Positions 5,982 to 40,582 of a stretch of 64,000 bases of DNA are shown piece after piece. The notes below the pieces were generated by a model. It saw only the letters and a list, made by a program, of their open reading frames with translations. It did not search any database and had not been told where the DNA came from. This DNA comes from an uncultured Acidimicrobiia bacterium. Its GTDB lineage: Bacteria > Actinomycetota > Acidimicrobiia > Acidimicrobiales > AC-14. Location of the stretch: NCBI GenBank assembly GCA_963836205.1, contig CAWIIV010000012.1, positions 1-64,000 on the forward strand, written 5' to 3'. The translations under genes were made by a program, and so were the position numbers. Position 1 is the first letter of the stretch, and each line of letters starts with the position of its first letter.

Positions 5982-6044
5982 GCGAAGAGCCGAAAATCAG
6001 ACCATAGGCCGACCCTGCAACGTCCTGACCTGGGACTTTAGGGG

Positions 6045-6117: not shown

Positions 6118-6131
6118 CGATCTTGTCTGCG

Positions 6132-6373: not shown

Positions 6374-6447
6374 GCCCCTGTAGCTCAGCTGGATAGAGCG
6401 GCTGCCTTCTAAGCAGTAGGTCGTAGGTTCGAGTCCTACCGGGGGCG
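6374..6447 (+). tRNA. tRNA-Arg(TCT)
   Basis: GCCCCTGTAGCTCAGCTGGATAGAGCGGCTGCCT-TCT-AAGCAGTAGGTCGTAGGTTCGAGTCCTACCGGGGGCG. Confidence 0.97.
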
Positions 6448-6507
6448 CCGGCAAAAGCCCAGGTCAGAGCCACGATCTCCCTCCAGCCCGACGACCTGGC
6501 CAAGCCG

Positions 6508-6529: not shown

Positions 6530-6549
6530 CTGTGCCAAAATCTGCGGCC

Positions 6550-8363: not shown

Positions 8364-8527
8364 GCTCGGACGCTACTCAGCCGAAGGGAGCGAAGAGCAC
8401 TTGCCCAGTAGCATCCGGCTGGTCGTCGATCACGCCGCCGTCGCTGTGACGCCGGCCCTACGCCGATGCCCGCGCCGGGACTCTCCCGGCGTTGCCGAAT
8501 CCGATCGGGCACTGCCACCGTGCGCCG

Positions 8528-11023: not shown

Positions 11024-11129
11024 GTCGCCTCGCCGCTGTAGCTCCGACCGCCCGCGACGTCCTCAGCAGCGTCGGCCTGGCAAGATCGTTGCGAGAACAT
11101 CCCCCTCGTGGGACAGTGGTCCAAGCCAT

Positions 11130-11145
11130 GCGAACAGGTATTCGA
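11130..11145. promoter_or_regulatory. Putative LexA (SOS) box
   Basis: GCGAACAGGTATTCGA vs actinobacterial consensus TCGAAC-N4-GTTCGA (2 mismatches), just before the AGGAG RBS of dprA. Confidence 0.6.
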
Positions 11146-11155
11146 CAGGAGTAGC

Positions 11156-12103
11156 ATGGGTATCTCGGACGACCAGAAGCGTCTTCTCGCCCTTTGCGCG
11201 GTCCGCCTCGACGGCCACGGCGTCGACTGGAACCTCATTGCCCGCCAGGCCCAACTTGAGCGTGGTGTCGATGGGCTCTGGTCGCAGAAGCTGACGGAGA
11301 GCTCCGAGGCCGCCCGGGTAGCGGCGCCGATCCTCAAGGCGGGACTGAAGGACACCACCGCGGCGATGGACCGGGTGGGGGCGGAGATCGAGGCCGCGGC
11401 GGCCGTCGGCGCCCGGCTGGTGACCGTGCTCGACGACGACTATCCGGCCAACCTACGGCTGATCCCGAACCTGCCGCCGTTCCTGTTCTACCGGGGCGAG
11501 CTACGACTCGACGACGCCCGGTCGGTGGCCGTGGTCGGCACCCGTGGGGCGTCGGAGAAAGGTCTGTCTCGTGCCGATCGCATGGCTCGGATGCTCGCAG
11601 CCGAGGGCGTCACCGTGATCTCGGGCCTGGCCCGGGGCATCGACACCGCCGCCCACCGCGCCGCGCTCGACGCCGGCGGCAGGACCATCGCCGTCCTCGG
11701 CACCGGCATCACCCGCTGCTACCCGGCCGAGAACGAGTCCCTGGCCGACCAGATCGCAGGTCACGGTGCCCTGGTCTCGCAGTTCTGGCCCACCCGCACT
11801 CCGGGCCGCGACACCTTCCCTCGGCGCAACGTCGTGACGTCGGGGATCGGCCAGGGGACCGTTGTCATCGAGGCCAGCTCCACGTCGGGAGCGAAGATGC
11901 AGGCCCGCCTCGCCCTCGAGCACGGCAAGAAGGTCTTCCTCGTGCGCTCCCTGGTCACCGACCAGATCTGGGCCCAGAGCTACCTCCAGCGAGGCGCCAT
12001 CGAGGTCGGCGACGTCGCCGACGTCGTCCGCCACCTCGCCGCCCCCGAGCGGGTCGCACAGGCCGGGGCCCAGCGCCAGCAGCTCACACTCACGCTGCTG
12101 TAG
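11156..12103 (+). CDS. dprA: DprA/Smf-family (SLOG) protein
   Basis: YPANL..PPFLFYRG, VAVVGTR, ISGLARGIDTAAH, FPRRN, VIEASSTSGA motifs. Confidence 0.92.
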   Translation: MGISDDQKRLLALCAVRLDGHGVDWNLIARQAQLERGVDGLWSQKLTESSEAARVAAPILKAGLKDTTAAMDRVGAEIEAAAAVGARLVTVLDDDYPANLRLIPNLPPFLFYRGELRLDDARSVAVVGTRGASEKGLSRADRMARMLAAEGVTVISGLARGIDTAAHRAALDAGGRTIAVLGTGITRCYPAENESLADQIAGHGALVSQFWPTRTPGRDTFPRRNVVTSGIGQGTVVIEASSTSGAKMQARLALEHGKKVFLVRSLVTDQIWAQSYLQRGAIEVGDVADVVRHLAAPERVAQAGAQRQQLTLTLL

Positions 12104-12858
12104 TGGCCGGTCGGGCCGAGCCGCCGGCGAGGCTCGACTTCCCCGCCTGTCCGAGGTGCCCCTATCTGCAGGGCGGCTCAGCCGCATTCTGCTTCTCGTG
12201 CGCCAGCCAGAGCATTGAGCCGATCGCAACCAGGGCCTGCCCGGTGTGCAGCCAGTTTCTCGACCGGGATGACACCTGCCCTAACTGGCTCTGCTCCGAC
12301 CCGACGAGGCGCATCGAGCGGATCGACGCCATCGGCTACCTCTCGGGCCCACTGCGCAGGAAGATCGTGTCCTACAAGTACGACGACAAGTACGGGTGGG
12401 CGACCATCTTCGGCCGGGTGCTGCTCGGGTGGCTGGCGGACAACCTCGCCGATCGGATGCCGGACCTCATCGTCGCCAACCCCACCTGGGTGGAGCCGGG
12501 GTCGACGTTCGCCACCGGTCACACGGAGCGGGTGCTCGAAGCGGCTGCGAGGGAGGACGCTCTCGCCCGCTGGAACCTCGATGTCGCCAGCCCTAGGGTG
12601 GTCACCAAGACCCGGGCCACCGCCAAGTCGGCCAGGAACACGGCTCCCGCCAAACGAACCGCCGCCCGCGAGCTGCGCGCCGCGCTGGCCCTCACCGACC
12701 TCGGCCGAATCGCTGGCAAGCGGATCCTCGTCTACGACGATGTCTGCACCACCGGCTCCCAGCTCAACACAGTGGCGTCGTGCCTCCTTGACGACGGTGG
12801 CGCGGCCGAAGTGACGGGGGTGGTGCTGGCCCGAGCTCCATGGCGGCAGAGGCTCTAG
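12103..12858 (+). CDS. ComF-like phosphoribosyltransferase with N-terminal zinc ribbons
   Basis: CxxC pairs, YKY, ILVYDDVCTTGSQL PRPP-binding loop; start overlaps dprA stop. Confidence 0.88.
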   Translation: MAGRAEPPARLDFPACPRCPYLQGGSAAFCFSCASQSIEPIATRACPVCSQFLDRDDTCPNWLCSDPTRRIERIDAIGYLSGPLRRKIVSYKYDDKYGWATIFGRVLLGWLADNLADRMPDLIVANPTWVEPGSTFATGHTERVLEAAAREDALARWNLDVASPRVVTKTRATAKSARNTAPAKRTAARELRAALALTDLGRIAGKRILVYDDVCTTGSQLNTVASCLLDDGGAAEVTGVVLARAPWRQRL

Positions 12859-23089: not shown

Positions 23090-24691
23090 GTGGGGATGGT
23101 GACCCGCAAGGCGGCCTGGGCCGAAGGCGCTCCCGCTAATGGCTGGAGCGACGACCTGATTTGGTATGCCGCCGCCATGAACCGGATGAAGGCGTTGACA
23201 CCACGGCTCGACGACCTCCCACCGATCGCCGAAGCGTTCATACAGCAGCGCGGCCAACTGACGAACAGGCAACAGGCCGAAGCCAACTCGATCATCAAGG
23301 CCTGGTCGGACCCGCGCAGCCTCGGCTACCAGGCGCAGGTTCACGCCACGTTCATGTCACCGAGCGCGTGGCCGTCCTATCGCTCCAAGCGGGTCCTCTG
23401 GCAGGAGTGCGCGCATGGCAACTTGTTCTTCCTGCCGTGGCACCGCGCCTACCTGCTCGAGTTTGAGGCAGTGGCCCGCCAGCACGTGCGCGAGCTCGGC
23501 GGTCCCGCGGACACGTGGGCCCTTCCGTACTGGAACTCCTCGGACTACGCCGATCACCCGGCCGCGGCCGGACTGCCACTGGCCTTGCGCGGGCGATCGC
23601 TGCCCCCCGGCGTCGTGGTGCCGGGTGTGGAGGCGCGCCCCGATGGCTCCTTCCCGAATCCCCTCTACGACGCGACTCGGGAAATGACCGGCGACGCCCC
23701 TACCTGGCGGCGGGCGAACGCCGGGTTGTGGACCGACGCGTCGGACGCCTTGAGCAGGCGCCACTTCGCGACCGCACAGGACGCGCAGTCGGTGTCGTTC
23801 GGCGGCGGCTATCTCGAGGACATCACCCTGTTCCACATCGCCGACGAGCTGGGTCAGCTGGACGGGCAGCCCCACGGCACGGTGCACTCCGCAGTGAACG
23901 GCAACATGGGGCTCTTCGAGACCGCGGGCCTCGACCCGGTGTTCTGGATGCACCACGCCAACGTCGACCGGCTCTGGGAGACCTACGCCCGGGATCTCGG
24001 CCACGGCTACCCGTTCGAGGACGGCACCCCCGCCGGGCCTGCCCACGACTCCTGGTCCAGCCAGGTGTTTCGGTTTCTTCGGCCCGATGGGCGCGTCTTC
24101 GAGTGGACCGCCCCGATGGTCGTGGACCTCGCCTCGCTCGACTACCGCTACGACACGACGGCCCCGCCGAGGATCTTGCCGGTGCTGACCGATCCCCCCG
24201 GGCAGGACGACGACCCTTTCGGCCTGGCCGGGGAGGCGTACGAACCGGTCGCGGCAGCATCGGAGGTGCCTGTCGCACAGGCGATCGAGGTCGAGCTCAC
24301 GGGCGGGGAGCAGGGTCAGGACGGCTCCGGTCTCGGCTTGTCCGGGACAGGCTGGGTGTTGCGCTTCGACGGAATCAGAGCCGCTCGCCCGGCGCTCACC
24401 TCCTATCAGGTGTACCTCGGTCTTCGTGCTGCGAGCGACGCCGACCCAACCGACCGCACCCACTTCGTCGGGGTGCTGTCGCTCTTCGGGGTCTTCGAGG
24501 CCAGCTGGGACGACGGCGGATTCGCTGCGTCCGGCCAGTCACGGCGCTTCGTCGTGACCAGCCTCGTTCGCGGACTCGGCGTCGGGTTCGACCCCCTGCA
24601 CGCGGTCGTGTGGCTCGTGCCGCTGGATCCTGATCGCGACCTCGACGAGGTCGGGCTGTCCGTCGGGCGGGTCTCGCTCGACGTTCGCTAG
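23090..24691 (+). CDS. Tyrosinase (type-3 dicopper) with C-terminal shielding domain
   Basis: CuA ECAHGNLFFLPWHRAYL, LPYWN; CuB PHGTVHSAV..DPVFWMHHANVDRLW; YRY. Confidence 0.92.
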   Translation: MGMVTRKAAWAEGAPANGWSDDLIWYAAAMNRMKALTPRLDDLPPIAEAFIQQRGQLTNRQQAEANSIIKAWSDPRSLGYQAQVHATFMSPSAWPSYRSKRVLWQECAHGNLFFLPWHRAYLLEFEAVARQHVRELGGPADTWALPYWNSSDYADHPAAAGLPLALRGRSLPPGVVVPGVEARPDGSFPNPLYDATREMTGDAPTWRRANAGLWTDASDALSRRHFATAQDAQSVSFGGGYLEDITLFHIADELGQLDGQPHGTVHSAVNGNMGLFETAGLDPVFWMHHANVDRLWETYARDLGHGYPFEDGTPAGPAHDSWSSQVFRFLRPDGRVFEWTAPMVVDLASLDYRYDTTAPPRILPVLTDPPGQDDDPFGLAGEAYEPVAAASEVPVAQAIEVELTGGEQGQDGSGLGLSGTGWVLRFDGIRAARPALTSYQVYLGLRAASDADPTDRTHFVGVLSLFGVFEASWDDGGFAASGQSRRFVVTSLVRGLGVGFDPLHAVVWLVPLDPDRDLDEVGLSVGRVSLDVR

Positions 24692-24703: not shown

Positions 24704-25504
24704 ATGGCAGGCGTCCTTCGAGCCGTCCGGCCGCCGTTGGCGTGGCGGGCGTGGACTCGGGCCATGGTTCGTCCCGGGCCGGCGCGTTGGCTGTCGATCG
24801 TCGCCGGGCTTGGCTGGGGGGCGTTGATCGGCCACGCCATCGGGTTCATGGGTTTCGGCGCCGTGGCCCCCGTGATGGACGGCCACCAGATGGCGGGCGT
24901 GGACATGGCGGGTACCGACACCTCCGCCTACTCGACCCAAGGATGGGTGATGGTCGCCTGCATGTGGGCGGCGATGCTGGCGGCGACGATGCTGCCTCTG
25001 GTGGCGCCGAACGTGCGCTTCGTCGCGGCACGCAGCCCACGTCGCCGTCGAACCGCCGCCACCGCCGAGGTCGTCGCGGGCTGGGCCTTGAGCTGGGCCG
25101 CGGCCGCGGTGGCCATCGCGCTCGCATCAGGGCTGCTCGTGCACGTGCTCGGGCGGCCGCAGGCGATCGTGGTGGCATTTTCGTTGGCGGCGGTGTGGCA
25201 GCTCAGCCGTGCCAAGCGCGTGGCTGTTGCCCGCTGCCACCGCACGTTCGCCCCGCCCCTCGACGGGTGCGCACCGAGAGCCTGTCGAGGGTTCGGGCGG
25301 CGACTTGGCGCTGACTGCGTCACCAGCTGCTGGGCGCTGATGGCGGCGATGGCGGTGTGCGACCACCGACTGCTGATCGTGGCGCCGCTCGCCTGGGTGC
25401 CCTGGTTTGAGCGGCGCCGGCCGCATCATCTCCCGGGCACCGGCGTGACGCTGATCGTGCTTGCGGCCGTCGGCGTCACGGCCGCGACCACCGTCGGCTC
25501 GTGA
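24704..25504 (+). CDS. DUF2182-like metal-binding integral membrane protein
   Basis: Met/His-rich loop, MW.AM..A.MLP, WQLSRAKR....RCH, CVTSCWALM. Confidence 0.8.
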   Translation: MAGVLRAVRPPLAWRAWTRAMVRPGPARWLSIVAGLGWGALIGHAIGFMGFGAVAPVMDGHQMAGVDMAGTDTSAYSTQGWVMVACMWAAMLAATMLPLVAPNVRFVAARSPRRRRTAATAEVVAGWALSWAAAAVAIALASGLLVHVLGRPQAIVVAFSLAAVWQLSRAKRVAVARCHRTFAPPLDGCAPRACRGFGRRLGADCVTSCWALMAAMAVCDHRLLIVAPLAWVPWFERRRPHHLPGTGVTLIVLAAVGVTAATTVGS

Positions 25505-26841
25505 CCGCCTATGCGCGGTCCGGCAGCGTAGGTGAACGACGCCTTCCCCGATGTCGGCGCCTGGACATCGAACCACCACACGCCATCGGCAAGATCGTCC
25601 GTGTTGTAGAGAGGCCCGAGCCCCCGGAGCGCGCCTAGGAGGTCGGGGTCGGGGACTGCTCCTTCCGTCGTCTTGTCGTAGACGCCCTCTTTTGTGGACA
25701 GGACCGACGTGAGCGGGTGCTTCGTCCGCTCCGTTGACGTCCAGAGCCTGTAGAGGCTCTTGGGCGTGGCGTTGCGGCTGCCGTGGTGGCCGACCTTGTA
25801 GACGTCGACGTTCGCCAGCTGCCTGCGGAGGGCCTCGTCGAGGCGTCGGCCGTTCTTACCGAGAGCGCAGTCGAGGGCGTAGGACCAGTTCTCGACCTGG
25901 GCGTCGCCGGCGAGCAGGATCGATCGCTTCCCGACCGTGACCAGCAGCACGATGCTGGTGTTGTTCAGGACATCGTCGAAGCCCTCGACGATGTCGAGCA
26001 CTTGCCGTGAGCCGACCCCGTGCAGGCGGCGCAGCAGCCACTCGGCGGCGCCGACCCCACCCGGTGCCGCCACCTTGTCCAGCGCGTCGACCAGGGCGTC
26101 GGCGCTGGGCGGGGTGATCAGCGGAGCGACGTCACCGGCAGCGGCGAGGGCCAGCCAGTACTCGGCCGACGCCGACGCGTAGCTCCTCAATCCGGGGACC
26201 TGGCTGAGCGTCGGGGGACCGAGCACCTGCAGGTGGACGCCGGGCAGGAGGTCGGTGTCGAGGGTGTCGCCGGCCTTCACCCAGGCCGGCTGAGCGTCGG
26301 TCGCCCACGCCTCGAGCCGGGCGACGGCCCGCCCGTTCGGGATGCCCAGCTCGGCGAGCGCCTTGGCTCTTTTGGCAACCTTGCTCCTGTCGACGGCGAA
26401 GCGCTCCTGGACCGCTGCTGCCTCGCGGTTGACCTCGTCCAGGGTCGACATGAAGTCCTGCGATTGCTGGTCAAGGCCGAGGGCGGGATCGGCCCGCTTG
26501 CGCTCGGGTACGTCGGTCCAGGGTCGCACGATGAGTTTCGGGTGGAGCTGATCGAGGTGGCTCTCGGCCCCCGTATCTCCGAAGCCCTTCACGTGGTCCT
26601 GATGGCGGTGGGTGGCCACCACCGCGTCGAGGTGGCCGCCGCAGTGCTCGGCGATTTTGGCCGCGATGTCGGCCATCACCGGTCCGCCCTCGCGGTAGAC
26701 CCGCGAACCGAGGTCGATGAGCACGTGCCGTTCCCTTCGGCGGTCGGGAAGTCGCGACCCGTAGGTGATGGTGAGCAGGAGGGCGTCGCCGAAGCCGACC
26801 TGGTACGTGCGCAGCCGGACGCTGCTGGGCCGGGGCGCCAT
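25426..26841 (-). CDS. ComEC/Rec2-type metallo-beta-lactamase-fold hydrolase (soluble)
   Basis: VGFGDA, LIDLG, THRHQDH, NNTS, LAGDA, KVGHHGS.NAT. Confidence 0.88.
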   Translation of the reverse strand: MAPRPSSVRLRTYQVGFGDALLLTITYGSRLPDRRRERHVLIDLGSRVYREGGPVMADIAAKIAEHCGGHLDAVVATHRHQDHVKGFGDTGAESHLDQLHPKLIVRPWTDVPERKRADPALGLDQQSQDFMSTLDEVNREAAAVQERFAVDRSKVAKRAKALAELGIPNGRAVARLEAWATDAQPAWVKAGDTLDTDLLPGVHLQVLGPPTLSQVPGLRSYASASAEYWLALAAAGDVAPLITPPSADALVDALDKVAAPGGVGAAEWLLRRLHGVGSRQVLDIVEGFDDVLNNTSIVLLVTVGKRSILLAGDAQVENWSYALDCALGKNGRRLDEALRRQLANVDVYKVGHHGSRNATPKSLYRLWTSTERTKHPLTSVLSTKEGVYDKTTEGAVPDPDLLGALRGLGPLYNTDDLADGVWWFDVQAPTSGKASFTYAAGPRIGGHEPTVVAAVTPTAASTISVTPVPGR

Positions 26842-28901
26842 CAGAAACTCTCCTCCGACGGCTCGGGGTGCAGCAGTGCGAAGCGCTCGTCGGCCTGCAC
26901 GCCGTCGGTCGTTCCGTAGCCCCCATGCTGGTCATGGAGCCCCTGGGCGAACAGGCGTGCCAGGCGGAGGTCCTGGCGGCCGATATCGAGGATGGGTTTG
27001 CGTTGGTGGAGTCGGAAACGGCCGAACTGGTCGAAGACGAGGACGCCACCGCCCCACATCTCGACCACTGCATCGTCGGCCATCCCGGCCGGCTTGTGCA
27101 TTCCGGGCGGGAGGCGACCGGCGGTGGTGCGCAGCAGCTGCGAGTAGTCGGCCAGCACCTCGTTGAGCACCAGGCCGTCGGGTCCGGCCCGTGTCGTGGC
27201 CAGCACCCGGTCGACCCTGGTGGACAGGCGCACGTCGAGGCCCAGGGGTCCCGAGTTGTTCCAGATGAACTGGTACACCTCCTCGGCAGAGGTGCGCAGG
27301 GCGGCGAAGTTGAGATGCTCGTAGCGGATGTCCTGACCCGTTGCCGGCGCATCTGGGTCCTCGAGATAGTGCGCCTGGGGCCGTTCGGCGGCCTGGTCCG
27401 GGCCCGGCGCGACCAAGCCGTCTTCGTCGATGATGCGGTGCCTCGGCGCAGTGATGCCGTAGCTCTCGAAGACGTTGGCGAGCGCATCGCGGTAGTGGTG
27501 CTCGTCGTTCGGCGCAAGGCGCCGGTCGGCGGTGATCACTGAGTCGATGACGTCCGCGAACTCCAGCTCGACGGGTGGCAGATAGTCGAGCGAGCGCAGG
27601 AGCATGCCGAGCAGGTGTTGCGCCGACTTGGTGCCCTCCTCCGCCACCCGGGCGGCGTCCATGCCCCCCTCCGTGCTGAGCGCCTCCAGCCGGCCGGCCC
27701 ACATGGTGACGAAGGTCTGCATGAAGGCGGCGACGAGGACTTCGGCTCGCCGATGGGCCTCGTCGTAGCGCGGGTCGGTCAGCCAGGCCTTGCCCGGCTC
27801 GAGGTCGACGGATCGTCGCAGCGGCATCGAGCCCGGGCCGGTGTCGGCGGTGCCGGCGCGCAGGGCCTTGGCCCGACCGAGCTGGTCGGCCAGGCCGGCG
27901 AGGGGGTTGCGCCTGAGGAACGCCGCTCGACCGGCCAGGCGCGCCGCCTTCTGAGCGGCGGGGTCCGCGAGCGCCCGCGCCGCCGCGTCCGACGCGAACG
28001 TGATGCGACCGACTCCGTCGGGATCGAGGAGCCGCTGCGCGACACCCTTGAGGCCGAACACCGAGAACAGCGCGACCAGGTCGGCCAACGCCTCGTGGAA
28101 AGCCAATTGGTCCGGCAAACCCGGCTCGACGTACCGGGGCCGCAGTCCGTCGAGGATGGCGTGGGCGACCTCGTGCGCGATCACGTCATAGGAGAGCGAC
28201 GTGTGCACTGCCGGCAGGCCGGCGACGGCCGGCAACCAGCCGAAGAACACGGCCGAGTTCGTCGGCGAGTAGTACGCGTTGGCGCCGAGCCTGGCCTCCG
28301 GTATCAGGTAGAGGTGGGGCCAGCCAGACCTCCAGGGGACGCGGCGGCCGAGGTGTCTTTCGAACAGGGCGAGGGTGTACGAGGCGATGGCGAACACGTT
28401 CTGGGCCCGGAAGGCGCGGTCGCTGGCGAGGGCGGCCGACTCGGCCCCGGTCCGGTTGGCCCAGCGGTCGACGTAGGCCCAGGGGCTGCCCTCGACATGG
28501 AGCACGACGGGCTCGACAGCCCGACTCGTCGCGACGTTGACGTCCACGACGTGGAACCGATGACTGCGGGGACCTCGTTGCAGGCGGCCTGCGGGCACCG
28601 GGATCGGCGTCACGACGGTGCCCAGTCGGTCGTGGATCTCGGGGTCCTGGGCGAGGACGGTCATCGCCACCGCGTCCTGGCGCAGCAGGTTGGGGATGGG
28701 TTCCCTCCGAGCCTCGGTCTTCTTCCTACCGGAGGCGGCCTTGCGCGGATTGCGGGACGCGGGCTGGGCCGGCTTGATCTCGACGAACTCGGGGCTCATG
28801 TCGCCGGGAGGCCGCGGAGAACGAACAAGGGGCGACTGGATCTCATCAAAGCGGCCCCGGGCCTCGCTTCTGTCTGGATCTAGATCACCCCGACCCGCCA
28901 T
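26841..28901 (-). CDS. Cytoplasmic thermolysin-like (M4/M36-type gluzincin) metallopeptidase
   Basis: NAYYS, DVIAHEVAH (HExxH), AFHEALAD third ligand, DEAH; no signal peptide; start uncertain. Confidence 0.85.
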   Translation of the reverse strand: MAGRGDLDPDRSEARGRFDEIQSPLVRSPRPPGDMSPEFVEIKPAQPASRNPRKAASGRKKTEARREPIPNLLRQDAVAMTVLAQDPEIHDRLGTVVTPIPVPAGRLQRGPRSHRFHVVDVNVATSRAVEPVVLHVEGSPWAYVDRWANRTGAESAALASDRAFRAQNVFAIASYTLALFERHLGRRVPWRSGWPHLYLIPEARLGANAYYSPTNSAVFFGWLPAVAGLPAVHTSLSYDVIAHEVAHAILDGLRPRYVEPGLPDQLAFHEALADLVALFSVFGLKGVAQRLLDPDGVGRITFASDAAARALADPAAQKAARLAGRAAFLRRNPLAGLADQLGRAKALRAGTADTGPGSMPLRRSVDLEPGKAWLTDPRYDEAHRRAEVLVAAFMQTFVTMWAGRLEALSTEGGMDAARVAEEGTKSAQHLLGMLLRSLDYLPPVELEFADVIDSVITADRRLAPNDEHHYRDALANVFESYGITAPRHRIIDEDGLVAPGPDQAAERPQAHYLEDPDAPATGQDIRYEHLNFAALRTSAEEVYQFIWNNSGPLGLDVRLSTRVDRVLATTRAGPDGLVLNEVLADYSQLLRTTAGRLPPGMHKPAGMADDAVVEMWGGGVLVFDQFGRFRLHQRKPILDIGRQDLRLARLFAQGLHDQHGGYGTTDGVQADERFALLHPEPSEESF

Positions 28902-29249
28902 CGTCCGCCTCCCCGCAGAACCCACGTTACGACAGGGCATGTGGGTCGGCAAGAGTCCGTTGGCGAGGTCCTGAGCGCTCAGTCCCTGGGGAGGCGGCCC
29001 CCGTGACGCACTGGCCGCCAGCTGTCGGCTCACCCGGCCGCCGTAGATGCCGTCCCCGAGGTGCTGCTCGACGGACTGGACGGCCGTAGCATGAGCGACC
29101 GGTGGGCGACGAACCGGCGATCGATACGGCCGAGGTGGCCAGAGCGCTGCTCGACATCGCCGTGGATTTCATCGAGTTCCAGGAGGAGATGACTGGGCGC
29201 CTGGTTGCAATGCGGGCGCGTCTGATCTCTCTGGCGGAGCGGCTCGGGG

Positions 29250-29483
29250 ATGTCTGAGGCTGAGCCCCGCCGACCGGACGAGTGGATCACCACCCCCATC
29301 GCGGCGCGAATGCTCGGCGTCCAGGTCCGCACCATCGAGCACCTGATCGACCGAGGTGACCTACCCGCGGAGACCCACCGGATCAGGCACAGGAGGAAGA
29401 TCCGGCTCCGGCGCTCCGACGTCGAGGCCTATATCGAGCGGGCACGGGTGAAGCCCGGCCAGCTTCGCCACCTCTACCCCTGA
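29250..29483 (+). CDS. Excisionase-like HTH (HTH_17) protein
   Basis: AARMLGVQVRTIEHLIDRGDLPA..RLRRSDVEAYIE; paralogue of 21430-21711. Confidence 0.8.
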   Translation: MSEAEPRRPDEWITTPIAARMLGVQVRTIEHLIDRGDLPAETHRIRHRRKIRLRRSDVEAYIERARVKPGQLRHLYP

Positions 29484-29719: not shown

Positions 29720-32318
29720 GTGACCTCGTACGGATCACTTCCGTCGGATCCGATGTCGGTCGACGCCGACTCGCCCGTCACCCGCTGGATTCGCTGGAGG
29801 GCGAGGTCGGCCGGGAAGGCGCTGGCTGGCATTCAGATCGGTGATCAGACTCCGAGCGCGTTTGTACCCGAACAAGTCCTGGTCGACCCTTCGGACTCGG
29901 AGCTGATCAACGACCTGATCGAGCGGTTCGGCGCCCAGGTGCTACCCACCCCGGCCAACCCCCCTCGCCCCCCGGAGCTCGGATTCTGACGAGGATCGAC
30001 ACAGGACGATGCCGATGCCGGTCAGGTTGCAGCTGCCACAGCCACCACCGGTGTCGACGCGGTTGGCGAGGATCTTCGCCGATCGGCTCGACTCGCCGGT
30101 GTCGGCGTCCTCCGAGGCTGCGGCGCGGTTGGTCGGCCTTGTCGCAGAGTTCGCGGCCGACGATCGGCCGATAGGGCTCAACGCGGTGGGCAGCGGCGCT
30201 GCGCTACCGCTGCTGACGGCCGCCGACGACTACCCGGCCGACCCGTTCCAGGAGGCCACCTATGGCAGCCCGGCGAGAGTCTGTGCCGCCTGGCAGCTCG
30301 TCGAGGCGTTCCGTGTGTTCAAGCCGATCAAGACCCCGGTGACGATCGCCGTCCTCGACGGCGGTTTCTGGCTCGACGGCCGTGCCCCTGGCTTTCCTCC
30401 GGCGCAGGGCGGCTCCGACTTCGGCCCGACCGTTGCCCAACTCAACCTTCGCGACGAGGATGTAGGCGCCAGCGGGACCAATCCCAACACGTGCGGCGAC
30501 TACAGCTGTCCTTGGCACGGCAACGCCGTGGCGAGCGTGGCCACGGCGCCGGTGGGCAACCGCCGGGGCGCGGCTGGTGTCGGCGGGACGGTTGCACGCC
30601 CAGTGCTGCTGAGGAGTGCGCTCTCGGTCTACGAGATCCTTCGAGGCGTGAACCTGTGCACGGGCTGGGGCATCGACGTCCTGAACATGAGCTTCCAGAT
30701 CAAGATGCCGGAGTTCATTTTCCCGACGACAGCGTGGGACAGTACCTTCGAGTACGCCTCCACCAACGGCCTCATCATGGTTGCAGCGGCGGGCAATGAC
30801 GGCGATTGGCTGCCCGAGGACGACAATCCGAGGCCTGCGACCCGGACCCCGGGTACGATCACCGTAGGCGCCCTCGACGGCGACCAGGCCAGGTCGGACT
30901 CGTCCTTCGGGCCTTCGATCGACATCTGGGCTCCCGGTACGGCAATAGCGGTCATGCCCGACCCGGACAACCCAGGGGGTTCCCTTAAGAGCGGCACGTC
31001 GATCGCGGCTCCCTTTGTTAGTGGGGTTCTGGCCATGATGCGAGCGGTGAACCCCTCGCTTGAGCCGGCGAGAGCGAAGGAGCTGCTCGTAAGCTCGGGA
31101 TGGAGGCCGGCGGGCCCGGGAAAGGTGACCGTTGGCGTCGATGCCTACGCCGCGGTGCTGTCGGCCATGGGGGGCAGGCTGCCCTCGGACCAGACCGTGC
31201 CCCACGACACGGCCCAAACCGCGGGCAAGCTGCGGACCATCTCCGGTGGCCGACTGGTTCCGTATGCCTTCGGGAGGTCGTTCTGCACGCTGACCCACAC
31301 GGCCGATGGGGATTGGTACAAATTCGCCATCAAGGAGTTCGCTCGTCTCGACGTACAGGCGCATTGGTACCCGCTCCTTGGCACGGTGAGTGTCTCGCTG
31401 GAGCCGGACGACCCTTCGAGCCGGGCCCTGGGGGAGATCGTCGAGGCCAGCTCGCCCGGCGCCAGCAGAACCACTGGCCTGTTGGCGCCGGGTTCGTACA
31501 AGCTGCGCGTCTGGGGATCGATCAACCTCTACGAGCTCACAGTTGACCTCGCGCCGGCCGCGCTGCCCCCGGACGATTTGGAGGTGAACGACTCCTTCGA
31601 TACCGCCACGCGGATTCGAATTGGTGACCCTCCGGGGACGCTACGCATCAGGGGGCGGGGGCCGGGTACCTACGACCTATCCCTTCATACCATCGCTGAC
31701 CGCGACTTCTTCAGGATCGAGGTCGTCAAGGACCCCAATCCCCTCAGCGTGCCCATCGTGCGCGTTGCCGGCAGCGATGCTCCGCTCGATGTGCAGGTTT
31801 TCGACAGCAATCGTAATCGTCTCGACGCCCTCCTCGGTGTGCGAGCGGGGCAGATCCTGCTTCGCGCCGCTGAGTCGAACGTCTTCTTCGTGCAGATCTC
31901 GGGCCGCTCCCAGACCCGTTACGCACTGACAATCCAGTTCGAGGTGGATCAGGCGCACCTGCCTGGGCCAGTGCAAGGTCACGACCTCATACCCGTCCCT
32001 GACCCCGGTGACCCGCCGTTCCGAGTAGATAAGGCGATGAGGCACATCCTCGTCGTCGTCGACGAGGCCCGACGGGCGGCCGGCAATCTGAAGCTGGCTT
32101 CGGTCGAAGGTCGCGCCATCCGAGCCGAGCTCCTCGACACTGCGGGCGACGTCGTTATGAGCCGGGCGTCCGAGAACGGCGGTGACCACGAATCCGTCGA
32201 GTTCGATATCCGCACGCTCGAGGCGGGTACCTACGTCCTCCGGCTCGGGCCCGACAACAAGCAGGATCCCGATTTCGCAAGGAGCCTCAACGTCGAGGTC
32301 CTTCCGACATTCGGCTGA
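29720..32318 (+). CDS. S8 subtilisin-like serine protease with C-terminal PPC-like domains; frameshift near 29980
   Basis: VLDGG, WHGNAVA, AAAGN, SGTSIAAPFVSG triad in 30009-32318; prodomain-like ORF 29720-29989 in another frame. Confidence 0.85.
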
Positions 32319-32764: not shown

Positions 32765-33733
32765 TCATTCAAGCTCGCGACGTAGTAGCGGCGACACGTT
32801 GCGAATCGTTACCCGTCCGCCGAAGTAGGCGTTGACGGTGATCAAACCCCGGCTTTCGAACGGCATCATCAGGGCCTCGGCCACGATCTGCGGGACGTCT
32901 TCAGCTTTCGCCAGGTCAGCTAGCTCGAACGACGTCGCCGGATCGTTCACGAGGTGGGCAACAAGTCTCTCCTGCACATCTCCAAGCTCGGGCTGCGCGG
33001 TAGCGAGGTACCTCAACAGTCCGCTCCACGACGGCTTGACGTAGAAGTACCGTCCGCCGTGCACCTCACGTGCCTCGTCGACCAGGCCCTCCGCATCGAG
33101 CGCGTGCACCGACTCACGGACAGCGACATCATCGAGTCCGGATGGCGCGCAGCGGACTGTGAGTTCCTCTCCCGGCACAAGGCGATGCCCCTGTGCGATT
33201 GACGCTTCAGCCAGCGCCACGAGAACAATTGAGTCCGACGCGGTGAGGCCAGGCACCGGATCGCGACGCGCGTAGGCGGGCGGGTCCCCTAAGGGCGGCC
33301 GACTGCTGATGCCGAAGATCGCGGCGAGGATGCGCCGGTACTCCTCCTCGTACGAGTCCACGTCAGCGAGGGGCTGCCAGACCGTCGCCTTGAGGGCGAC
33401 TGGGACCTGGACTCCATCCAGCACCACCGGAATCAGCTTGCAAGCGCCCTCAATTCGCTGGACGACTCCGGCATTCAGCTCCTCGCGCACCCATGGCTTG
33501 TCAATCGAATTCCCGGACAGCACGACGAGGAATACGTCTGCACCACCGATGCCCTCTTCGAAGATGCGACTCACGAGGCTGTCGCCGGGCGCCATCTCCC
33601 ACTTGTCCAGCCACGCATCCACACCGTCGCCTCGGAGACGTTGAGCGAAGGCGAGCACGAAGCGATCCTTGTCCTCGCTCGCGTGGCTGACGAAGACCTT
33701 CGGAGCCGAATGCGCGGTGTCCGATTCGGCCAT
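32765..33733 (-). CDS. TIR-domain protein
   Basis: KVFVSHASEDK, WLDKWEMAPGDSL, VLS.NSIDKPWVREEL with catalytic-type Glu. Confidence 0.9.
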   Translation of the reverse strand: MAESDTAHSAPKVFVSHASEDKDRFVLAFAQRLRGDGVDAWLDKWEMAPGDSLVSRIFEEGIGGADVFLVVLSGNSIDKPWVREELNAGVVQRIEGACKLIPVVLDGVQVPVALKATVWQPLADVDSYEEEYRRILAAIFGISSRPPLGDPPAYARRDPVPGLTASDSIVLVALAEASIAQGHRLVPGEELTVRCAPSGLDDVAVRESVHALDAEGLVDEAREVHGGRYFYVKPSWSGLLRYLATAQPELGDVQERLVAHLVNDPATSFELADLAKAEDVPQIVAEALMMPFESRGLITVNAYFGGRVTIRNVSPLLRRELE

Positions 33734-33969: not shown

Positions 33970-35568
33970 GTGCGTTCTCGCGGTCGTGTTGCGAGCTGTG
34001 GGGCAGCGGTGCTCCTGGTCCTGTCCGTCCTAACCTTCGAGGCTCCCTCCGCTGCCGCCACAGCGAGGCGCGCCGTGCTCCGTTTTGGGTTCGTCGACGG
34101 GGCCAAGACCGGGAACGAGTCGCCGTCCACTCACAGCGCGAGCTACATCGACGACGGCATTCAGTGGGACATCTATGGCTCGGCCGGTAGTGGGGTTCGG
34201 CCCGCCTTCTACTCGTCCGACGGCGCCGTCTCCCTATCGGTCTCCGACGGAGGAGATGTTCGATCCGGCGCCGTCGGGAACGGAGCGGGTCGAATCGCTA
34301 ATGTCGCCGTGCGTGTCGACGGCGTTCAGGTCGGCGTAGTCCGCTTCATGCACCTCGTTTCAGTTGCGGTCGGGCCAGGCTCACCCGATTCCTCCCTCGG
34401 CCCCCTTCCACCCAGCACGCGGTACGACGGCTGTTACGGGTGGCCCTGCTCGGCTAGTTGGGCGGTGCCGTCGCCGGCCGGGATCCACACTCATCTCGAC
34501 ATTGACCACGGCTGCTACCGGAACGTCGGCGTGAACACCGCGCTGGCCGTGGGTGAGCCGATCGCGATGCTGTCTTCAGCGTTCCCGAAGGAGAACCAAA
34601 GCGCTTGTGACCTTGCCGAGATGCAGGCTGTGAACACGGTCGCCGGCGGAAAGCTCGTCATCGCCGGGCTCAACACAAGTCTGCCCGCCGGCTCGAACAA
34701 CGTGTTCGTCCGCAAGCAGCTCGACACCAACGGGAACTGGCAGTCGAGCTGGACTTCCCTGAGTGGCTCCTTCACCGACCTCGACGTGGCGTCGTCTGCT
34801 GGGAAGGCGTCAATCGTGGCCATCAAGAGCGGCGCCGCTCCTGGCACCAACAACGTCTACGTCCGCGCCGAGCTCGACACCAACGGGAACTGGCAGGGTG
34901 GCTGGACCGCCCTGTCGGGCTACATGACGAAGGTGGCCACCGCCGTCGACAGCAGCGGAAAGCTCGTCATCGCCGGGCTCAACACAAGTCTGCCCGCCGG
35001 CTCGAACAACGTGTTCGTCCGCAAGCAGCTCGACACCAACGGGAATTGGCAGTCGAGCTGGACTTCCCTGAGTGGCTCCTTCACCGACCTCGACGTGGCG
35101 TCGTCTGCTGGGAAGGCGTCAATCGTGGCCATCAAGAGCGGCGCCGCTCCTGGCACCAACAACGTCTACGTCCGCGCCGAGCTCGACACCAACGGGAACT
35201 GGCAGGGTGGCTGGACCGCCCTGTCGGGCTACATGACGAAGGTGGCCACCGCCGTCGACAGCAGCGGAAAGCTCGTCATCGCCGGGCTCAACACAAGTCT
35301 GCCCGCCGGCTCGAACAACGTGTTCGTCCGCAAGCAGCTCGACACCAACGGGAACTGGCAGTCGAGCTGGACTTCCCTGAGTGGCTCCTTCACCGACCTC
35401 GACGTGGCGTCGTCTGCTGGGAAGGCGTCGATCGTGGCCATCAAGAGCGGCGCCGCTCCTGGCACCAACAACGTCTACGTTCGCGCCGAGCTCGACACCA
35501 ACGGGAACTGGCAGGGTGGCTGGACCGCCCTGTCGGGCTACATGACCAAGGTGGCCACCGCCAACTGA
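33970..35568 (+). CDS. Secreted protein: M23-like N-domain plus repeat-built beta-propeller
   Basis: Signal peptide; H..D, MHL, GIHTHLD; three 103-aa repeats each with two Trp-rich blades. Confidence 0.75.
   Translation: MRSRGRVASCGAAVLLVLSVLTFEAPSAAATARRAVLRFGFVDGAKTGNESPSTHSASYIDDGIQWDIYGSAGSGVRPAFYSSDGAVSLSVSDGGDVRSGAVGNGAGRIANVAVRVDGVQVGVVRFMHLVSVAVGPGSPDSSLGPLPPSTRYDGCYGWPCSASWAVPSPAGIHTHLDIDHGCYRNVGVNTALAVGEPIAMLSSAFPKENQSACDLAEMQAVNTVAGGKLVIAGLNTSLPAGSNNVFVRKQLDTNGNWQSSWTSLSGSFTDLDVASSAGKASIVAIKSGAAPGTNNVYVRAELDTNGNWQGGWTALSGYMTKVATAVDSSGKLVIAGLNTSLPAGSNNVFVRKQLDTNGNWQSSWTSLSGSFTDLDVASSAGKASIVAIKSGAAPGTNNVYVRAELDTNGNWQGGWTALSGYMTKVATAVDSSGKLVIAGLNTSLPAGSNNVFVRKQLDTNGNWQSSWTSLSGSFTDLDVASSAGKASIVAIKSGAAPGTNNVYVRAELDTNGNWQGGWTALSGYMTKVATAN
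34648..35562 (+). repeat. 3 x 309-bp near-identical intragenic tandem repeat
   Basis: Units start at 34648, 34957 and 35266; only a few synonymous differences. Confidence 0.95.
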
Positions 35569-37183: not shown

Positions 37184-40100
37184 TTGCCGGTGCGGCGACC
37201 ACGGCGAAACGGAGTCCAGGTGGCGGAGCGGCGACGCGTCTCGACGGGGCGGCACGGGCAACGACGGCTGGCGACGAGGGCGCTCGCCATCCTCATGGGA
37301 GTCCTGGCTGCGCAGGCCACACCTGCCCTCTCGTCTGCTGCATTGGCGCAGGTATCAGCCGGGGAGCGGCCGCCGGTTCGGTCGGTCCAGGCTGGGGCGT
37401 CAGGGCTCGCCGCAGCGGCGGCTGGCCCGGGCGAGACGGATGTCTACCTCGATCAAGGAGGCAACGCCGTCTATCGGGTCGACGACGGCTACAACCTCGA
37501 CCAATACCTCGGCCGGAGCGAGAGCCCGATCAACTTCTCCATCGACCTCAACCGCGACCTTGGACCCGTGGACAGCACCGGCCACCCGGTCGCCGGAAAC
37601 GCCCTCTTCGGCAAGACCGCCCGTATCAGCCTGCGCGCCTTCGATGTCGACGACAAGACCGTGGTGTCAGGGGTTGCCTCCGAACGTGACCTCACCACCG
37701 TGAACGGGGAGATTCTCGAGAGCCCGCTGGCTGGTGCTGACAACCAGTGGAACATCAACACCCTGCGCTTTTCAGCCAACGAACTGCGGCTGCCGACCCC
37801 GTCGAACCCGACGGGGCGCAACGACTTCGAGGTGCTGGTCGATACCGCGAACTCGGGAGCCGACGTCTGGAAGGTGGAGGTCGACTGGGCCGAGCTTCGT
37901 CTGTCGACCGAGGTCGTGCCGATCGCGATGGTCCACGGGTACAACGGTGCCGCAGCCGACTTCACCGCGGGGAGCCGCCTCCTACCCTTCTACGAACGCT
38001 TCGTCCCCGGGCTCGACGGGCGGGCGATCGCCACGGCCGGGTCCAGGCGGGGCAGCATCCAACAGAACACCCAGGTGCTCGACGACGCGATCTCCGACCT
38101 TCTGCGCAGCTCGGGAGCCGACCGCGTCAACCTGCTGGCCCATTCCAAGGGTGGCCTGGAATCTCGGCTCTTCATATTCGACCACCCCGACAAGGTCGAC
38201 AAGCTGGTCATGCTGGGGACCCCCAACGGGGGCACCAAGCTGGCGGACATCGCCTGTGCCTTCGGCGCGCAGATCTTCGGCATCCCGACCAACCCCGTCG
38301 GCGTCATCGTCAAGAGTCAGTTCGGGAACTGCAACGGTCCCCAGGACGGGCTCTACCAACTGCAGCCCTCCTACGTCCTGAAGACGTTCAACAAGAACAC
38401 ACCTGACCAGCGTCAGGTCTTTTACGGCACGATCGCCGGAACCAAGAACGGCCCGGCGAGCGCCCTGCTCGACTCCCCCGACAACGACAGCTTCGTGACC
38501 GTCGGCAGCGTCGAGTACCTCAGCCGCGACGACCCCGCCCACCGCGGCCTCCACAACCCGTTGGACCTGTTCTTTGTGAACCACAGCGGTCTCATCGTCG
38601 ACAGCAACCCACCTGGCACGCGGGCCATGTGTGTGCACTACGAATCGACGTGCGGCGTTGCCGGAGTGTCGGCAAACGTCGCGGCATCCGGACCGGCCCC
38701 GGTGACGGCCGCCGCGAGCGTCTCGTTCGAGACCGCCGCGGCCAAGGCGGCTACGGTGCCGGCGGCCGGCGGTTCCGTCGACGTGGCGCTCAGCTTCGAG
38801 TCGGCCAGTCGGGCGCTGATCACAATCGTCGGAAGCGGTGCTGGCGGCGGGCTCGGGGGCTCCTTCGGATCGACGCCGCTGGAGGTGACGGAAGTCCTCG
38901 GGATACCCGTCCTTGCCGCCACTCTGACCGCGCCCGCGAACGGTTCGCTCCGCCTCACCAACACGACCGGGAGCCCTATCGACGCCGCGGTGATCGTCGC
39001 ACCGGAAACCCAGCGGCGAATGGCCGTGGCCGCCACGCCCAGCTTGGTCCCATCCGGCCAGCCAGTCACGATCGCCGCCAGCGTCAGCGATGCGGTCCCG
39101 ACCGACGCGCCTCGGGTGCAGGTACGGGACGAGTCCGGGGCAGTGGTGGCCGACGCCACGGGGACGAACGGGACGATCAACCTCACGTTCACGCCTCCCC
39201 ACGGCGGCGCCTACCTGGTGGTGGCGGAGGTTGACGGTCCCCGTCCACGTCGGGCAACGGACACCTTCGCCGTCGCCGCCGGTGGGGCCAGCATCGCCGG
39301 CGGCTTCACCGAGGCGACACCGGACGACAACGGCAATGGCCTCGCCGACGCACTGGTCATACGGACGACCGCCAACGCGACGACACCGGGGCCGTACCGC
39401 GTTGCCGCTCGTCTGGTCGACGCCAACGGGATGCCGGTGACCGCAACCGGGGTGCGAGTGAACCTCGTAGCGGGGGCGCAATCGGTGGAGCTGCGCTTCG
39501 ACGGCAAGGCGATCTACGACTCCGGGCTGTCCGGTCCCTACCGGGTCGTCGATGTCGCCCTCAGCCGCGACGACGCCAGCCTCACCCAGGAGCAGCAGGT
39601 CGCCCTCCTGGGCACGACGACTGCCTACGACTATCGGCAGTTCGAGCACTTCCAGGTCGAGATCGACCGCGATGGCTTCTCCGACCGTGGCATCGACACC
39701 AGCGGCGACGGCCAGTTCGACGTCCTGGAAGTGACGGGCCACGTCCGAGTGGACGGAGGCGGAGCGCATGCTGTCAACGCCAGGCTGGTGGCATCCAACG
39801 GCACCGAGGTCGGACGGTTCCAGGCAGAAGCGTCGTTCGTCGCCGGGTCGAACACCGTCACCCTGACGTTCCCGTTCCAGGCGATCCGGGCGGTCGGTCT
39901 CGACGGGCCGTACACCGTGGAGGATCTCTCGATCTACCCCTTGGCCGACGCTGACAGGCTCGGCTACCTCCTGACCGCCCACGTCACCCAGCCTTACCGG
40001 CTGGCACCGCCGGCGTCGTCGTGCCGGGCAGCGGTGATCCGGGTCGGCGGTGCCAGCATCTTGAACATCGGAGGCTCCACCGCGCTGGAGCTGGTCCCGG

Positions 40101-40582
40101 CCAATGCCGCGTACGACCCCTGTGCGACCGCTACAGCCGGCTTCCCTGGCCTGACCGCTGGGGCTGTGGTCCTCGACCTGCCACTGGCGACGACGACGAG
40201 CGGTCCCGGAAGTGGAGCGGCGACCGCGTCGGTCGCGAATGTGAGGGTCCGGGGTTTGCTCGGGCTCGACGTCCGGGTGACCGGGCCGGTCCATGCCGAG
40301 GTCGATGCACGGTGCACCAATGGCGTCCCAGCGCTCTCAGGATCGTCCTCCGTGGGCAGGGTTGTGATCGCTGGCATCGCTCTAGTGCCGGTTGGCACCG
40401 ACCCGTTCCAGCTCCCCGTACCTGGTCTCGGGACGATCTACTTCAATCAGCACGAACGCTCGACGAACGGGTCGACGGTGGACGACACCATCACCCAGAG
40501 AGCGGTCTTCTTCGACTCCACGACCCCACTCCTGCCCGATCTCGTGGTCGGTCAGGTCACCGCCTCGGTGCGGAACTGCTGA
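37184..40582 (+). CDS. Large secreted alpha/beta-hydrolase (lipase/PGAP1-like) with Ig-like domains
   Basis: Signal peptide, MVHGY, AHSKGG nucleophile elbow, LGTPNGG, DxxxxG Ca-type loops; start uncertain. Confidence 0.8.
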   Translation: MPVRRPRRNGVQVAERRRVSTGRHGQRRLATRALAILMGVLAAQATPALSSAALAQVSAGERPPVRSVQAGASGLAAAAAGPGETDVYLDQGGNAVYRVDDGYNLDQYLGRSESPINFSIDLNRDLGPVDSTGHPVAGNALFGKTARISLRAFDVDDKTVVSGVASERDLTTVNGEILESPLAGADNQWNINTLRFSANELRLPTPSNPTGRNDFEVLVDTANSGADVWKVEVDWAELRLSTEVVPIAMVHGYNGAAADFTAGSRLLPFYERFVPGLDGRAIATAGSRRGSIQQNTQVLDDAISDLLRSSGADRVNLLAHSKGGLESRLFIFDHPDKVDKLVMLGTPNGGTKLADIACAFGAQIFGIPTNPVGVIVKSQFGNCNGPQDGLYQLQPSYVLKTFNKNTPDQRQVFYGTIAGTKNGPASALLDSPDNDSFVTVGSVEYLSRDDPAHRGLHNPLDLFFVNHSGLIVDSNPPGTRAMCVHYESTCGVAGVSANVAASGPAPVTAAASVSFETAAAKAATVPAAGGSVDVALSFESASRALITIVGSGAGGGLGGSFGSTPLEVTEVLGIPVLAATLTAPANGSLRLTNTTGSPIDAAVIVAPETQRRMAVAATPSLVPSGQPVTIAASVSDAVPTDAPRVQVRDESGAVVADATGTNGTINLTFTPPHGGAYLVVAEVDGPRPRRATDTFAVAAGGASIAGGFTEATPDDNGNGLADALVIRTTANATTPGPYRVAARLVDANGMPVTATGVRVNLVAGAQSVELRFDGKAIYDSGLSGPYRVVDVALSRDDASLTQEQQVALLGTTTAYDYRQFEHFQVEIDRDGFSDRGIDTSGDGQFDVLEVTGHVRVDGGGAHAVNARLVASNGTEVGRFQAEASFVAGSNTVTLTFPFQAIRAVGLDGPYTVEDLSIYPLADADRLGYLLTAHVTQPYRLAPPASSCRAAVIRVGGASILNIGGSTALELVPANAAYDPCATATAGFPGLTAGAVVLDLPLATTTSGPGSGAATASVANVRVRGLLGLDVRVTGPVHAEVDARCTNGVPALSGSSSVGRVVIAGIALVPVGTDPFQLPVPGLGTIYFNQHERSTNGSTVDDTITQRAVFFDSTTPLLPDLVVGQVTASVRNC

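Follow-up and report, generated by a model that had tools for sequence, protein, structure and literature searches.

We identified a two-gene module, encoding a thermolysin-fold zinc metallopeptidase and a soluble ComEC-type metallo-β-lactamase (MBL) hydrolase, on a 64,000-nucleotide stretch of DNA from an uncultured Acidimicrobiia bacterium (contig CAWIIV010000012.1 of assembly GCA_963836205.1, positions 1 to 64,000; this whole stretch is the window). We tentatively propose, with a probability of roughly 45%, that the module is a protease-gated pro-nuclease of the Hachiman/AVAST/Canu kind, in which a metalloprotease would be the activator and which would protect the host, or its mobile carrier element, in the manner of abortive infection. 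The strict coupling of the two genes and the position of two insertions in the MBL argue for this proposal, and by analogy with the known systems we infer the proteolytic activation, the DNase activity, the trigger and the immune role.

Linkage and coupling of the protease and MBL genes

The metallopeptidase gene (26841..28901, minus strand; 686 aa from the ATG at 28901) is followed by the gene for the MBL-fold phosphodiesterase, a presumed latent nuclease (25426..26841, minus strand; 471 aa). The two genes overlap at 26839..26843 (minus strand) in a TGATG stop/start, where the A of the protease stop codon doubles as the A of the MBL ATG, so that one base is shared (junction ttcTGATGgcg). Both open reading frames (ORFs) have the third-position GC bias typical of real genes (GC at third positions 0.85; window GC 68%).

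One genome per species was scanned, which gave 29 loci with the protease. An MBL homologue lies downstream of the protease at 27 of the 29, across three phyla; these 27 include four Chloroflexota loci (protease identity 38-40%) and two Acidobacteriota loci (30-32%). At 26 of the 27 loci there is an overlap between the protease stop and the MBL start, by 4 nt (GTGA/ATGA) in 20, by 1 nt (TGATG) in four and by 8 nt in two. The script that scored these overlaps took the start codon nearest to the stop, which favours overlap, yet the alignments given by tblastn start within residues 1-8 of the query. At the sole non-overlapping locus (L007), two fragments of IS605-family TnpB (OrfB/Cas12f-like) lie between the protease and a degenerate MBL (11901-12674).

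The same linkage was seen in a phylum sample of 401 genomes, in which the protease was present in four genomes (E<=1e-20) and the MBL clade (E<=1e-10) at four places in three genomes. All four places are directly beside a protease match, two of them in the unpublished genomes G001 and G088. On plasmids, all seven MBL matches sit directly downstream of a protease match, and the MBL is the next gene at each of the six annotated plasmid loci (detected by tblastn at L123 and L124 and by weak Lactamase_B matches at L125-L128), with the stop/start overlap also present at L124 and L125. Collectively, the counts from the loci, the genome sample and the plasmids indicate that the pair is an obligate, translationally coupled module; at the level of sequence, the stop/start overlap is a signature of such coupling. 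The homologues are linked, as the original prediction, made from the letters of the window, had supposed.

The protease has a predicted thermolysin-type catalytic fold

The protease ORF spans 26841..29033 (minus strand) and has 730 aa when counted from its first GTG (29033). The ATG at 28901 has a Shine-Dalgarno-like GGGAGG ~7 nt upstream, and the genome's own call (P0003) starts at the ATG at 28799 and has 652 aa. The protein carries NAYY (28269-28280), HEVAH (28161-28175) and HEALAD (28080-28097), all on the minus strand. No hydrophobic signal-like stretch was found at the N-terminus of either the protease or the MBL when these were read by eye, with no predictor, and the protease is predicted to be cytoplasmic. 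All 954 protease homologues that were scored are named 'hypothetical', and most are from Actinomycetota. Pfam gave only a sub-gathering match to Peptidase_M4 (E=0.041; PF01447 at 14.8 versus 22.4 bits) and no match in the protease to PF02868, FTP or PepSY, so that the secreted pre-pro architecture of M4 peptidases was not found.

An AlphaFold2 model of the protease was built with 43 homologues and had a predicted local distance difference test (pLDDT) value of 84.4. In VIA-align the model matched the M36 protease 7qp3 (Z 23.1, root-mean-square deviation (rmsd) 4.0, 319 residues aligned), thermolysin 4m65 (Z 20.1, rmsd 5.0, 289/316 aligned) and LasB 1ezm (Z 19.5), and in Foldseek it matched ProA, thermolysin, aureolysin and LasB, each with a probability of 1.0. 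These matches suggest that residues 38-450 of P0003 (27450..28688, minus strand) form a complete, M4/M36-like catalytic fold of the thermolysin type. H209, E210, H213, E236 and D240 of P0003 are invariant in 43 sequences. The HExxH motif, followed 24 residues on by HEAxAD, is intact at 29 of 30 loci, the exception being a frameshifted gene in a metagenome-assembled genome.

The catalytic fold is followed by a C-terminal alpha/beta domain of ~150 aa (26862..27332, minus strand; P0003 residues ~490-646) with the motif GGGVLVFDQFGRFRLHQRKP. It was modelled at a pLDDT of 85-95 and has many invariant residues, had no Pfam match, and in the ESM Atlas reached at best 0.75-0.76, with unnamed clusters; the VIA-align run on the whole protease model covered residues ~38-455 and so barely tested this domain. 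We regard it as a candidate regulatory or partner-binding domain. PADLOC returned no match for the protease at E<=0.1.

Longer relatives of the protease were also observed. Members of a distant branch (P0125-P0139, ~1150-1250 aa) seemingly contain two tandem gluzincin modules, with HExxH/HEAFAD-like motifs near residues 200 and 800. A protease-MBL fusion was sought among the longer homologues, and the 21 long forms proved to be fusions with S8 subtilases or tandem gluzincins instead.

The MBL is a ComEC-type hydrolase with two insertions

The MBL has HRHQDH at 26593-26610, NNTS at 25954-25965, GD at 25903-25908 and HHGS at 25777-25788 (minus strand). Pfam detected Lactamase_B below the gathering threshold (E=0.007). 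A model built with 24 homologues had a pLDDT of 84.7, and its best Foldseek match was the MBL domain of ComEC (9ic4, E=1e-13), followed by the phosphorylcholine esterase Pce. A profile alignment to 9ic4 brings the NNTS...GD...HHGS block into register with ComEC. The metal ligands H78, H80, D82, H83, D313, H352 and H353 are present, and 21 of 24 aligned homologues retain them.

Between HxHxDH and the NNxS strand, residues 77 to 149 of ComEC (72 aa) correspond to MBL profile positions 88 to 294 (206 aa), which leaves the MBL with ~134 extra residues. In the model these form two mainly helical segments, ~110-183 and 210-293, with a core hairpin between them. Insertion 1 (26293..26514, minus strand; residues ~110-183) is a candidate gating segment of three helices that is not found in the ComEC MBL domain; it is 62-77 aa long in 23 of 24 homologues and has L134, D151, N169, A172, L176 and W179 as conserved residues. 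Insertion 2 (25963..26214, minus strand; residues ~210-293) is a second candidate gating segment, predicted to be helical at a pLDDT of 59-75, with a conserved stretch P260..G264..W268. Both insertions are retained in 23 of 24 homologues and keep a stable length over three phyla. The tail of the protein (residues 447-471) is unconserved and was modelled with low confidence.

PADLOC and NCBIfam models gave partial, sub-threshold matches of the MBL to LmuA (1e-14), PDC-M48B, RTasMBL, Avs1a, 6A-MBL and ComEC. Judged by sequence, the MBL is related to the defence MBLs and is a member of no named family. Thus the picture drawn in the original prediction, of a signal-less gluzincin with NAYY, HEVAH and HEALAD overlapping through TGATG a soluble ComEC-type MBL (HRHQDH, GD, HHGS) with long insertions between its catalytic motifs, agrees with the ORFs, the motifs, the junction and both models.

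Proposed protease-gated activation of the MBL

The ComEC-like MBLs of Hachiman (HamM), AVAST (Avs1a), Lamassu and DRT have been shown experimentally to be gated pro-nucleases by Tuck et al. (Science 2025, PMC12799240). In such pro-nucleases two insertions obstruct the active site, and a partner trypsin-like protease cuts HamM at I118 and I218 and Avs1a at I134 and I234, yielding an indiscriminate DNase; the gating loops of HamM are short and disordered (PMC12799240). The same study bears out the pairing of MBL hydrolases with trypsin-like proteases in anti-phage systems such as Avs1, to which the original prediction had appealed. Alignments to the Avs1a and LmuA models place the NNxS region at positions ~250 and ~208, and therefore the cut sites I134 and I234 would lie in the same segment as the insertions of the present MBL. 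Since these insertions occupy the gating-loop segment of HamM and Avs1a, the analogy with a zymogen pair has solid precedent.

We envisage that the protease and the ComEC-type MBL would be made in fixed proportion via the stop/start overlap, the MBL being a latent DNase whose insertions would act as gates over its active site. The metalloprotease itself might sense a trigger such as phage infection, another invasion or stress, with its C-terminal domain or the formation of oligomers as possible means. It would then cut the MBL insertions and release the nuclease, and the released nuclease would degrade DNA, leading to growth arrest or cell death. Where lipases (patatin or Tle1-like) or a latent-type tyrosinase are encoded with the pair, they would probably be further effectors under the same protease.

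Several observations weigh against this proposal. In the model the insertions are helical and not disordered, and the MBL scores far under the cut-offs of all named MBL defence families. We also examined the two closest flanking genes to either side of the pair at the 29 loci, with the conserved partners set aside (98 proteins). No recognisable defence system was found among these 98 proteins, which by Pfam are mostly products of metabolic and housekeeping genes. PADLOC matched 14 of the 98 at E<=1e-5, in every case to generic domains, among them the LuxR helix-turn-helix (HTH), TnpB, the EngA GTPase and luciferase-like enzymes. The chromosomal loci are thus unlike defence islands, and no conserved sensor or NTPase partner was found at the 29 loci. 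Of the analogous zymogen pair put forward in the original prediction, the obligate coupled pair and the insertions in the gating segment have held up, and the suggested enrichment in defence islands was not seen among the flanking proteins.

A further point against the proposal comes from a subclade of the protease in which the MBL is missing or degenerate. Eight homologues form one group in a quick protease tree, with a support by SH-like approximate likelihood ratio test (SH-aLRT) of 94, which is modest, the tree being a quick one. At two of the eight loci, both from Blastococcus (L016 and L021), there is no MBL gene, and the protease abuts the genes for a PpoB2-type membrane copper chaperone and a tyrosinase, two partners that are treated below; one of the two genomes is without any MBL of the clade, and in the other the sole MBL is distant. 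In Blastococcus mobilis, which lacks the cognate MBL, a distant ComEC-like MBL (495-aa frame; G402 contig C45, 41875-42933; L129, L130) is encoded elsewhere in the genome. At the other six loci (L005, L010, L017, L007, L009 and L019) metal-ligand positions of the MBL are substituted, and three of these six also lack insertion 1. The protease motifs are intact in all eight, and the tyrosinase is kept in seven, the eighth contig ending too early. A metagenome contig (L043) has the same protease-PpoB2-tyrosinase arrangement with no MBL. Since the MBL has been lost or inactivated in the subclade while the protease is intact, the protease has a role that does not need the nuclease, and this role is plausibly directed at the tyrosinase.

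The persistence of an intact protease where the MBL is lost also fits an alternative in which the protease and the MBL would be parallel effectors, or the parts of a stable heteromeric enzyme, that are jointly triggered; neither would be a zymogen, and the insertions would serve partner or substrate binding. The translational coupling would suggest fixed stoichiometry and complex formation, and whereas the gating loops of HamM are short and disordered, the present insertions are long and helical and in part well conserved. Structure prediction of a complex between protease residues 100-652 and MBL residues 1-446 gave a score of 0.13 (mark 0.32) and is neutral either way. The position of the insertions in the segment of the known gates speaks against this alternative. 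In addition, a free cytoplasmic protease and nuclease would need latency, yet no conserved inhibitor, immunity, transporter or regulator gene was found at the 29 loci. We consider parallel effectors unlikely, if a reading to be taken seriously.

A latent-type tyrosinase recurs beside the pair

In the window the pair converges with genes for a tyrosinase and a copper chaperone, partners that, like the lipases and S8 subtilases described below and the persistence of the protease where a functional MBL is absent, had escaped the original prediction. The tyrosinase (23090..24691, plus strand; 533 aa; Pfam Tyrosinase, 2e-34) is signal-less and carries a C-terminal DUF7868 (4e-11), a latent-type architecture; 8b74 is a full-length relative in the PDB, and units of mollusc haemocyanin are also related. 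It is followed by the PpoB2-type membrane copper chaperone (24704..25504, plus strand; Pfam PF09948, E=4.7e-20), whose gene runs towards that of the MBL, so that the two overlap by 79 nt at their 3' ends (25426-25504). A tyrosinase and PpoB2 converge on the pair at 14 of the 29 loci; among the remaining loci, two contigs break off within PpoB2 and a third stops too soon to judge. A metagenome search with the tyrosinase gave five close relatives (>=53% identity), and the protease was present beside both of those that had enough flanking sequence. On a Rhizobium gallicum plasmid, the gene for a distant tyrosinase, accompanied by HEAT and SCO genes (SCO being a copper chaperone), is found upstream of the pair in divergent orientation, and this is a second, independent arrangement. 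The tyrosinase of the window is probably an accessory effector, or else a second protease client.

Latent tyrosinases and prophenoloxidase-type enzymes are activated by proteolysis. It could therefore be argued that the latent tyrosinase is the main client of the protease, which would open or remove the DUF7868 cap to allow quinone or melanin formation in pigmentation, stress or the envelope, with the MBL secondary. The 14 loci and the two contigs ending in PpoB2, the two informative metagenome relatives and the recurrence on the Rhizobium plasmid with SCO and in another orientation are all in keeping with this, as are L016, L021 and L043, which have the protease, PpoB2 and tyrosinase and no MBL, and the core plus C-terminal domain build seen in latent oxidases and haemocyanin units. 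However, pairs without a tyrosinase are common: six Actinomycetota loci, all four Chloroflexota loci, both Acidobacteriota loci, five of the six plasmid loci and a paralogous pair in the genome of the window lack one. Moreover, the pair was nearby for none of 75 distant metagenome tyrosinases (<=38% identity), and the MBL, not the tyrosinase, is the universally linked gene. The tyrosinase is therefore distinctly unlikely to be the main client.

Lipases and S8 subtilases are linked to some pairs

A patatin gene is located directly upstream of the pair at six of the 29 loci (four Kribbella, one Nocardioides and one Chloroflexota) and also on a Rhizobium rhizogenes plasmid. At 49% identity (E=1e-108), the patatins of Kribbella and Rhizobium are closer to each other than the respective proteases are. 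PADLOC returned no match for the pair-linked patatins. In Agrobacterium vitis, a Tle1-like DUF2235 lipase gene follows the MBL gene with a 4-nt overlap, and in R. gallicum another Tle1-like DUF2235 lipase is encoded beside a second module.

Lipases of the Tle1-like (DUF2235) and patatin types are typically found as secreted effectors. Their presence in the same operon is what would be expected if the genes were a cassette of toxic enzymes (protease, nuclease and lipase) delivered to other cells by a contractile injection, type VI or type VII secretion system, and tail-sheath or extracellular contractile injection system genes do occur within two genes of the pair at two of the 29 loci (L002 and L012). 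We find this very unlikely, because the other 27 loci are without secretion genes, no signal peptides, known delivery domains or conserved immunity gene were found, and the order and coupling of the two enzymes are conserved over phyla that have differing secretion systems.

A broader form of the protease-gated proposal is that the metalloprotease would be the master switch of a suicide or immune cascade, unleashing a gated DNase, a phospholipase (patatin or Tle1-like) and a capped tyrosinase, and that it can stand alone, as in the subclade without a functional nuclease that retains the protease and the tyrosinase. In prokaryotes, the tyrosinase arm of such a cascade would correspond to the prophenoloxidase cascade of arthropods. 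We hold this broader form to be rather improbable.

An S8 subtilase domain is fused N-terminally to the protease at both Acidobacteriota loci and on several Rhizobium plasmids. The window itself encodes an S8 subtilase with a PPC domain (30009-32318, plus strand), divergent from the protease gene and separated from it by two small genes, one for an HTH_17 protein (29250-29483) and one at 29720-29989. This subtilase was considered as a part of the system and set aside, as it has only generic S8 similarity to the Acidobacteriota fusion domain (E=4e-5).

Genomic context and distribution of the module

The copy in the window looks like part of an integrative conjugative element (ICE) inserted at tRNA-Arg. 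Genes for tRNA-Lys, tRNA-His and tRNA-Arg (6043-6449; tRNA-Arg at 6374-6449) are followed by a tyrosine integrase (6532-7668), a serine recombinase (8492-9991) and a DprA-like protein (11108-12103), and an SSB (46860-47351) and a TrwC relaxase-helicase (60284-63289) are encoded further on, together with two transposases. A TIR-domain protein (32765-33733, minus strand), which PADLOC matched to bSEFIR, PDC-S66 and ThsB, and a 1067-aa protein with DUF4062, TPR and a KAP P-loop NTPase (42923-46126, minus strand), which matched QatA and PDC-S20, are possible defence cargo of the element. The element also encodes, on the plus strand, a large tectonin-repeat protein (33970-35568), a 1132-aa protein with an alpha/beta-hydrolase core (37184-40582) and a 1472-aa protein with PKD repeats (55534-59952).

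The module is thinly and horizontally spread over at least Actinomycetota, Chloroflexota, Acidobacteriota, Pseudomonadota and Planctomycetota, and it is probably also present in Bacteroidota. The protease family was found on 37 plasmid records, 21 of them conjugative, with Rhizobium (18), Agrobacterium (5), Hymenobacter (4), Isosphaeraceae, Deinococcus, Kovacikia and others as hosts. The quick protease tree does not track taxonomy. Phage records gave one partial match, on an unannotated 9.5-kb contig. On the R. rhizogenes plasmid the module lies between a cyclase and SAVED gene set of a cyclic-oligonucleotide-based anti-phage signalling system (CBASS) and an AAA and HNH pair.

If the pair were an ordinary catabolic or detoxifying one, acting for example in the hydrolysis of peptides or phosphoesters and mobile by chance, the metabolic genes that make up most chromosomal flanks and the second-best structural match of the MBL, Pce, would be readily explained. 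Such a role is hard to square with the very patchy occurrence of the protease (4 of 401 genomes), the carriage on an ICE and plasmids, the lipase linkage, the CBASS neighbour and the lack of a conserved transporter or regulator, and we regard it as highly doubtful.

Individual loci showed further features. The genome of the window has a second, diverged pair (L034; contig C15, 139956-143089; identity 47% for the protease and 40% for the MBL), flanked by a GH43 gene and an extracytoplasmic function sigma factor gene and without a tyrosinase or patatin nearby; in the search table, one TAG lies inside the long open frame around its MBL match. On a Hymenobacter plasmid (L127, 4550-11322), an SMC-like AAA ATPase gene is directly upstream of the pair and a JAB/MPN protein gene is convergent with it. 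On an Isosphaeraceae plasmid (L124, 5749-7944), genes for a caspase-family protein and an HTH regulator are upstream of the pair.

Significance and comparison with known systems

If the protease-gated proposal is true, the metallopeptidase would be a third, unrelated protease class that activates MBL pro-nucleases, after trypsin-like proteases and caspases, and the module would be a minimal two-gene form without a separate sensor, occurring across no fewer than five phyla and, in plant-associated bacteria, on conjugative plasmids. A tyrosinase acting as an intracellular immune effector would likewise be new for bacteria. It has been suggested (PMC12799240) that other enzyme classes may undergo proteolytic activation in immunity. 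The lipase and tyrosinase partners fit this published suggestion and render it directly testable, and the tyrosinase and lipase linkage and the nuclease-lost lineage raise the interest of the module above that of a simple extra family member. Literature searches found no anti-phage operon of an MBL with a metalloprotease or 'peptidase M4', no defence system of a tyrosinase, patatin and MBL, no link between tyrosinase and phage defence, and no description of DUF7868; the status of the pair as an undescribed system is uncertain.

The protease resembles the M4 and M36 peptidases (thermolysin and the fungalysins) in its fold (Z 20-23), its HExxH plus ExxxD gluzincin motif and its NAYY/NAFY strand. 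In contrast to these, it is without a signal peptide or an FTP/PepSY propeptide, is predicted to be cytoplasmic and has an extra C-terminal domain. The MBL core is closest to ComEC/Rec2 in both structure and sequence, with NNxS...GD...HHGS in common, whereas the present MBL is soluble and free-standing, has no membrane channel or OB domain and carries the ~134 inserted residues; its score against TIGR00361 was 33 bits, compared with a cut-off of 190.05. The tyrosinase with a C-terminal domain adjoining the protease recalls latent tyrosinase and prophenoloxidase systems, but here the association covers part of the protease family only.

Neither AVAST type 1 nor Lamassu describes the pair. NCBIfam NF041809 scored 33.4 bits against 420 and no STAND gene adjoins the pair in the window. 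The PADLOC LmuA match was partial, at 52 bits, and no SMC gene lies beside this pair, an SMC-like ATPase preceding the pair only at the Hymenobacter plasmid locus. 6A-MBL is a jumbo-phage defence system (bioRxiv 10.1101/2025.09.30.679545), and Canu (CanABC) loci are caspase-nuclease loci with the protease gene upstream (PMC12799240). The present pair differs from the HamM, Avs1a and CanC pairs in that its protease is a thermolysin-fold metallopeptidase, neither trypsin-like nor a caspase, and from Hachiman, AVAST, Lamassu and Canu in that its protease is neither fused to nor accompanied by a STAND, HamA/B, LmuB or CanB-type partner. Its MBL insertions are about twice as long as those of HamM and Avs1a and are predicted to be helical, and lipase and tyrosinase partners are not described for the systems of Tuck et al. 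The features in common with the HamM, Avs1a and CanC pairs are a ComEC-like MBL that carries two insertions in the stretch from motif 2 to the NNxS strand, an adjacent gene for a separate protease that strictly co-occurs with the MBL, and a mobile, patchy distribution; as in Canu, the protease gene is located upstream of the nuclease gene.

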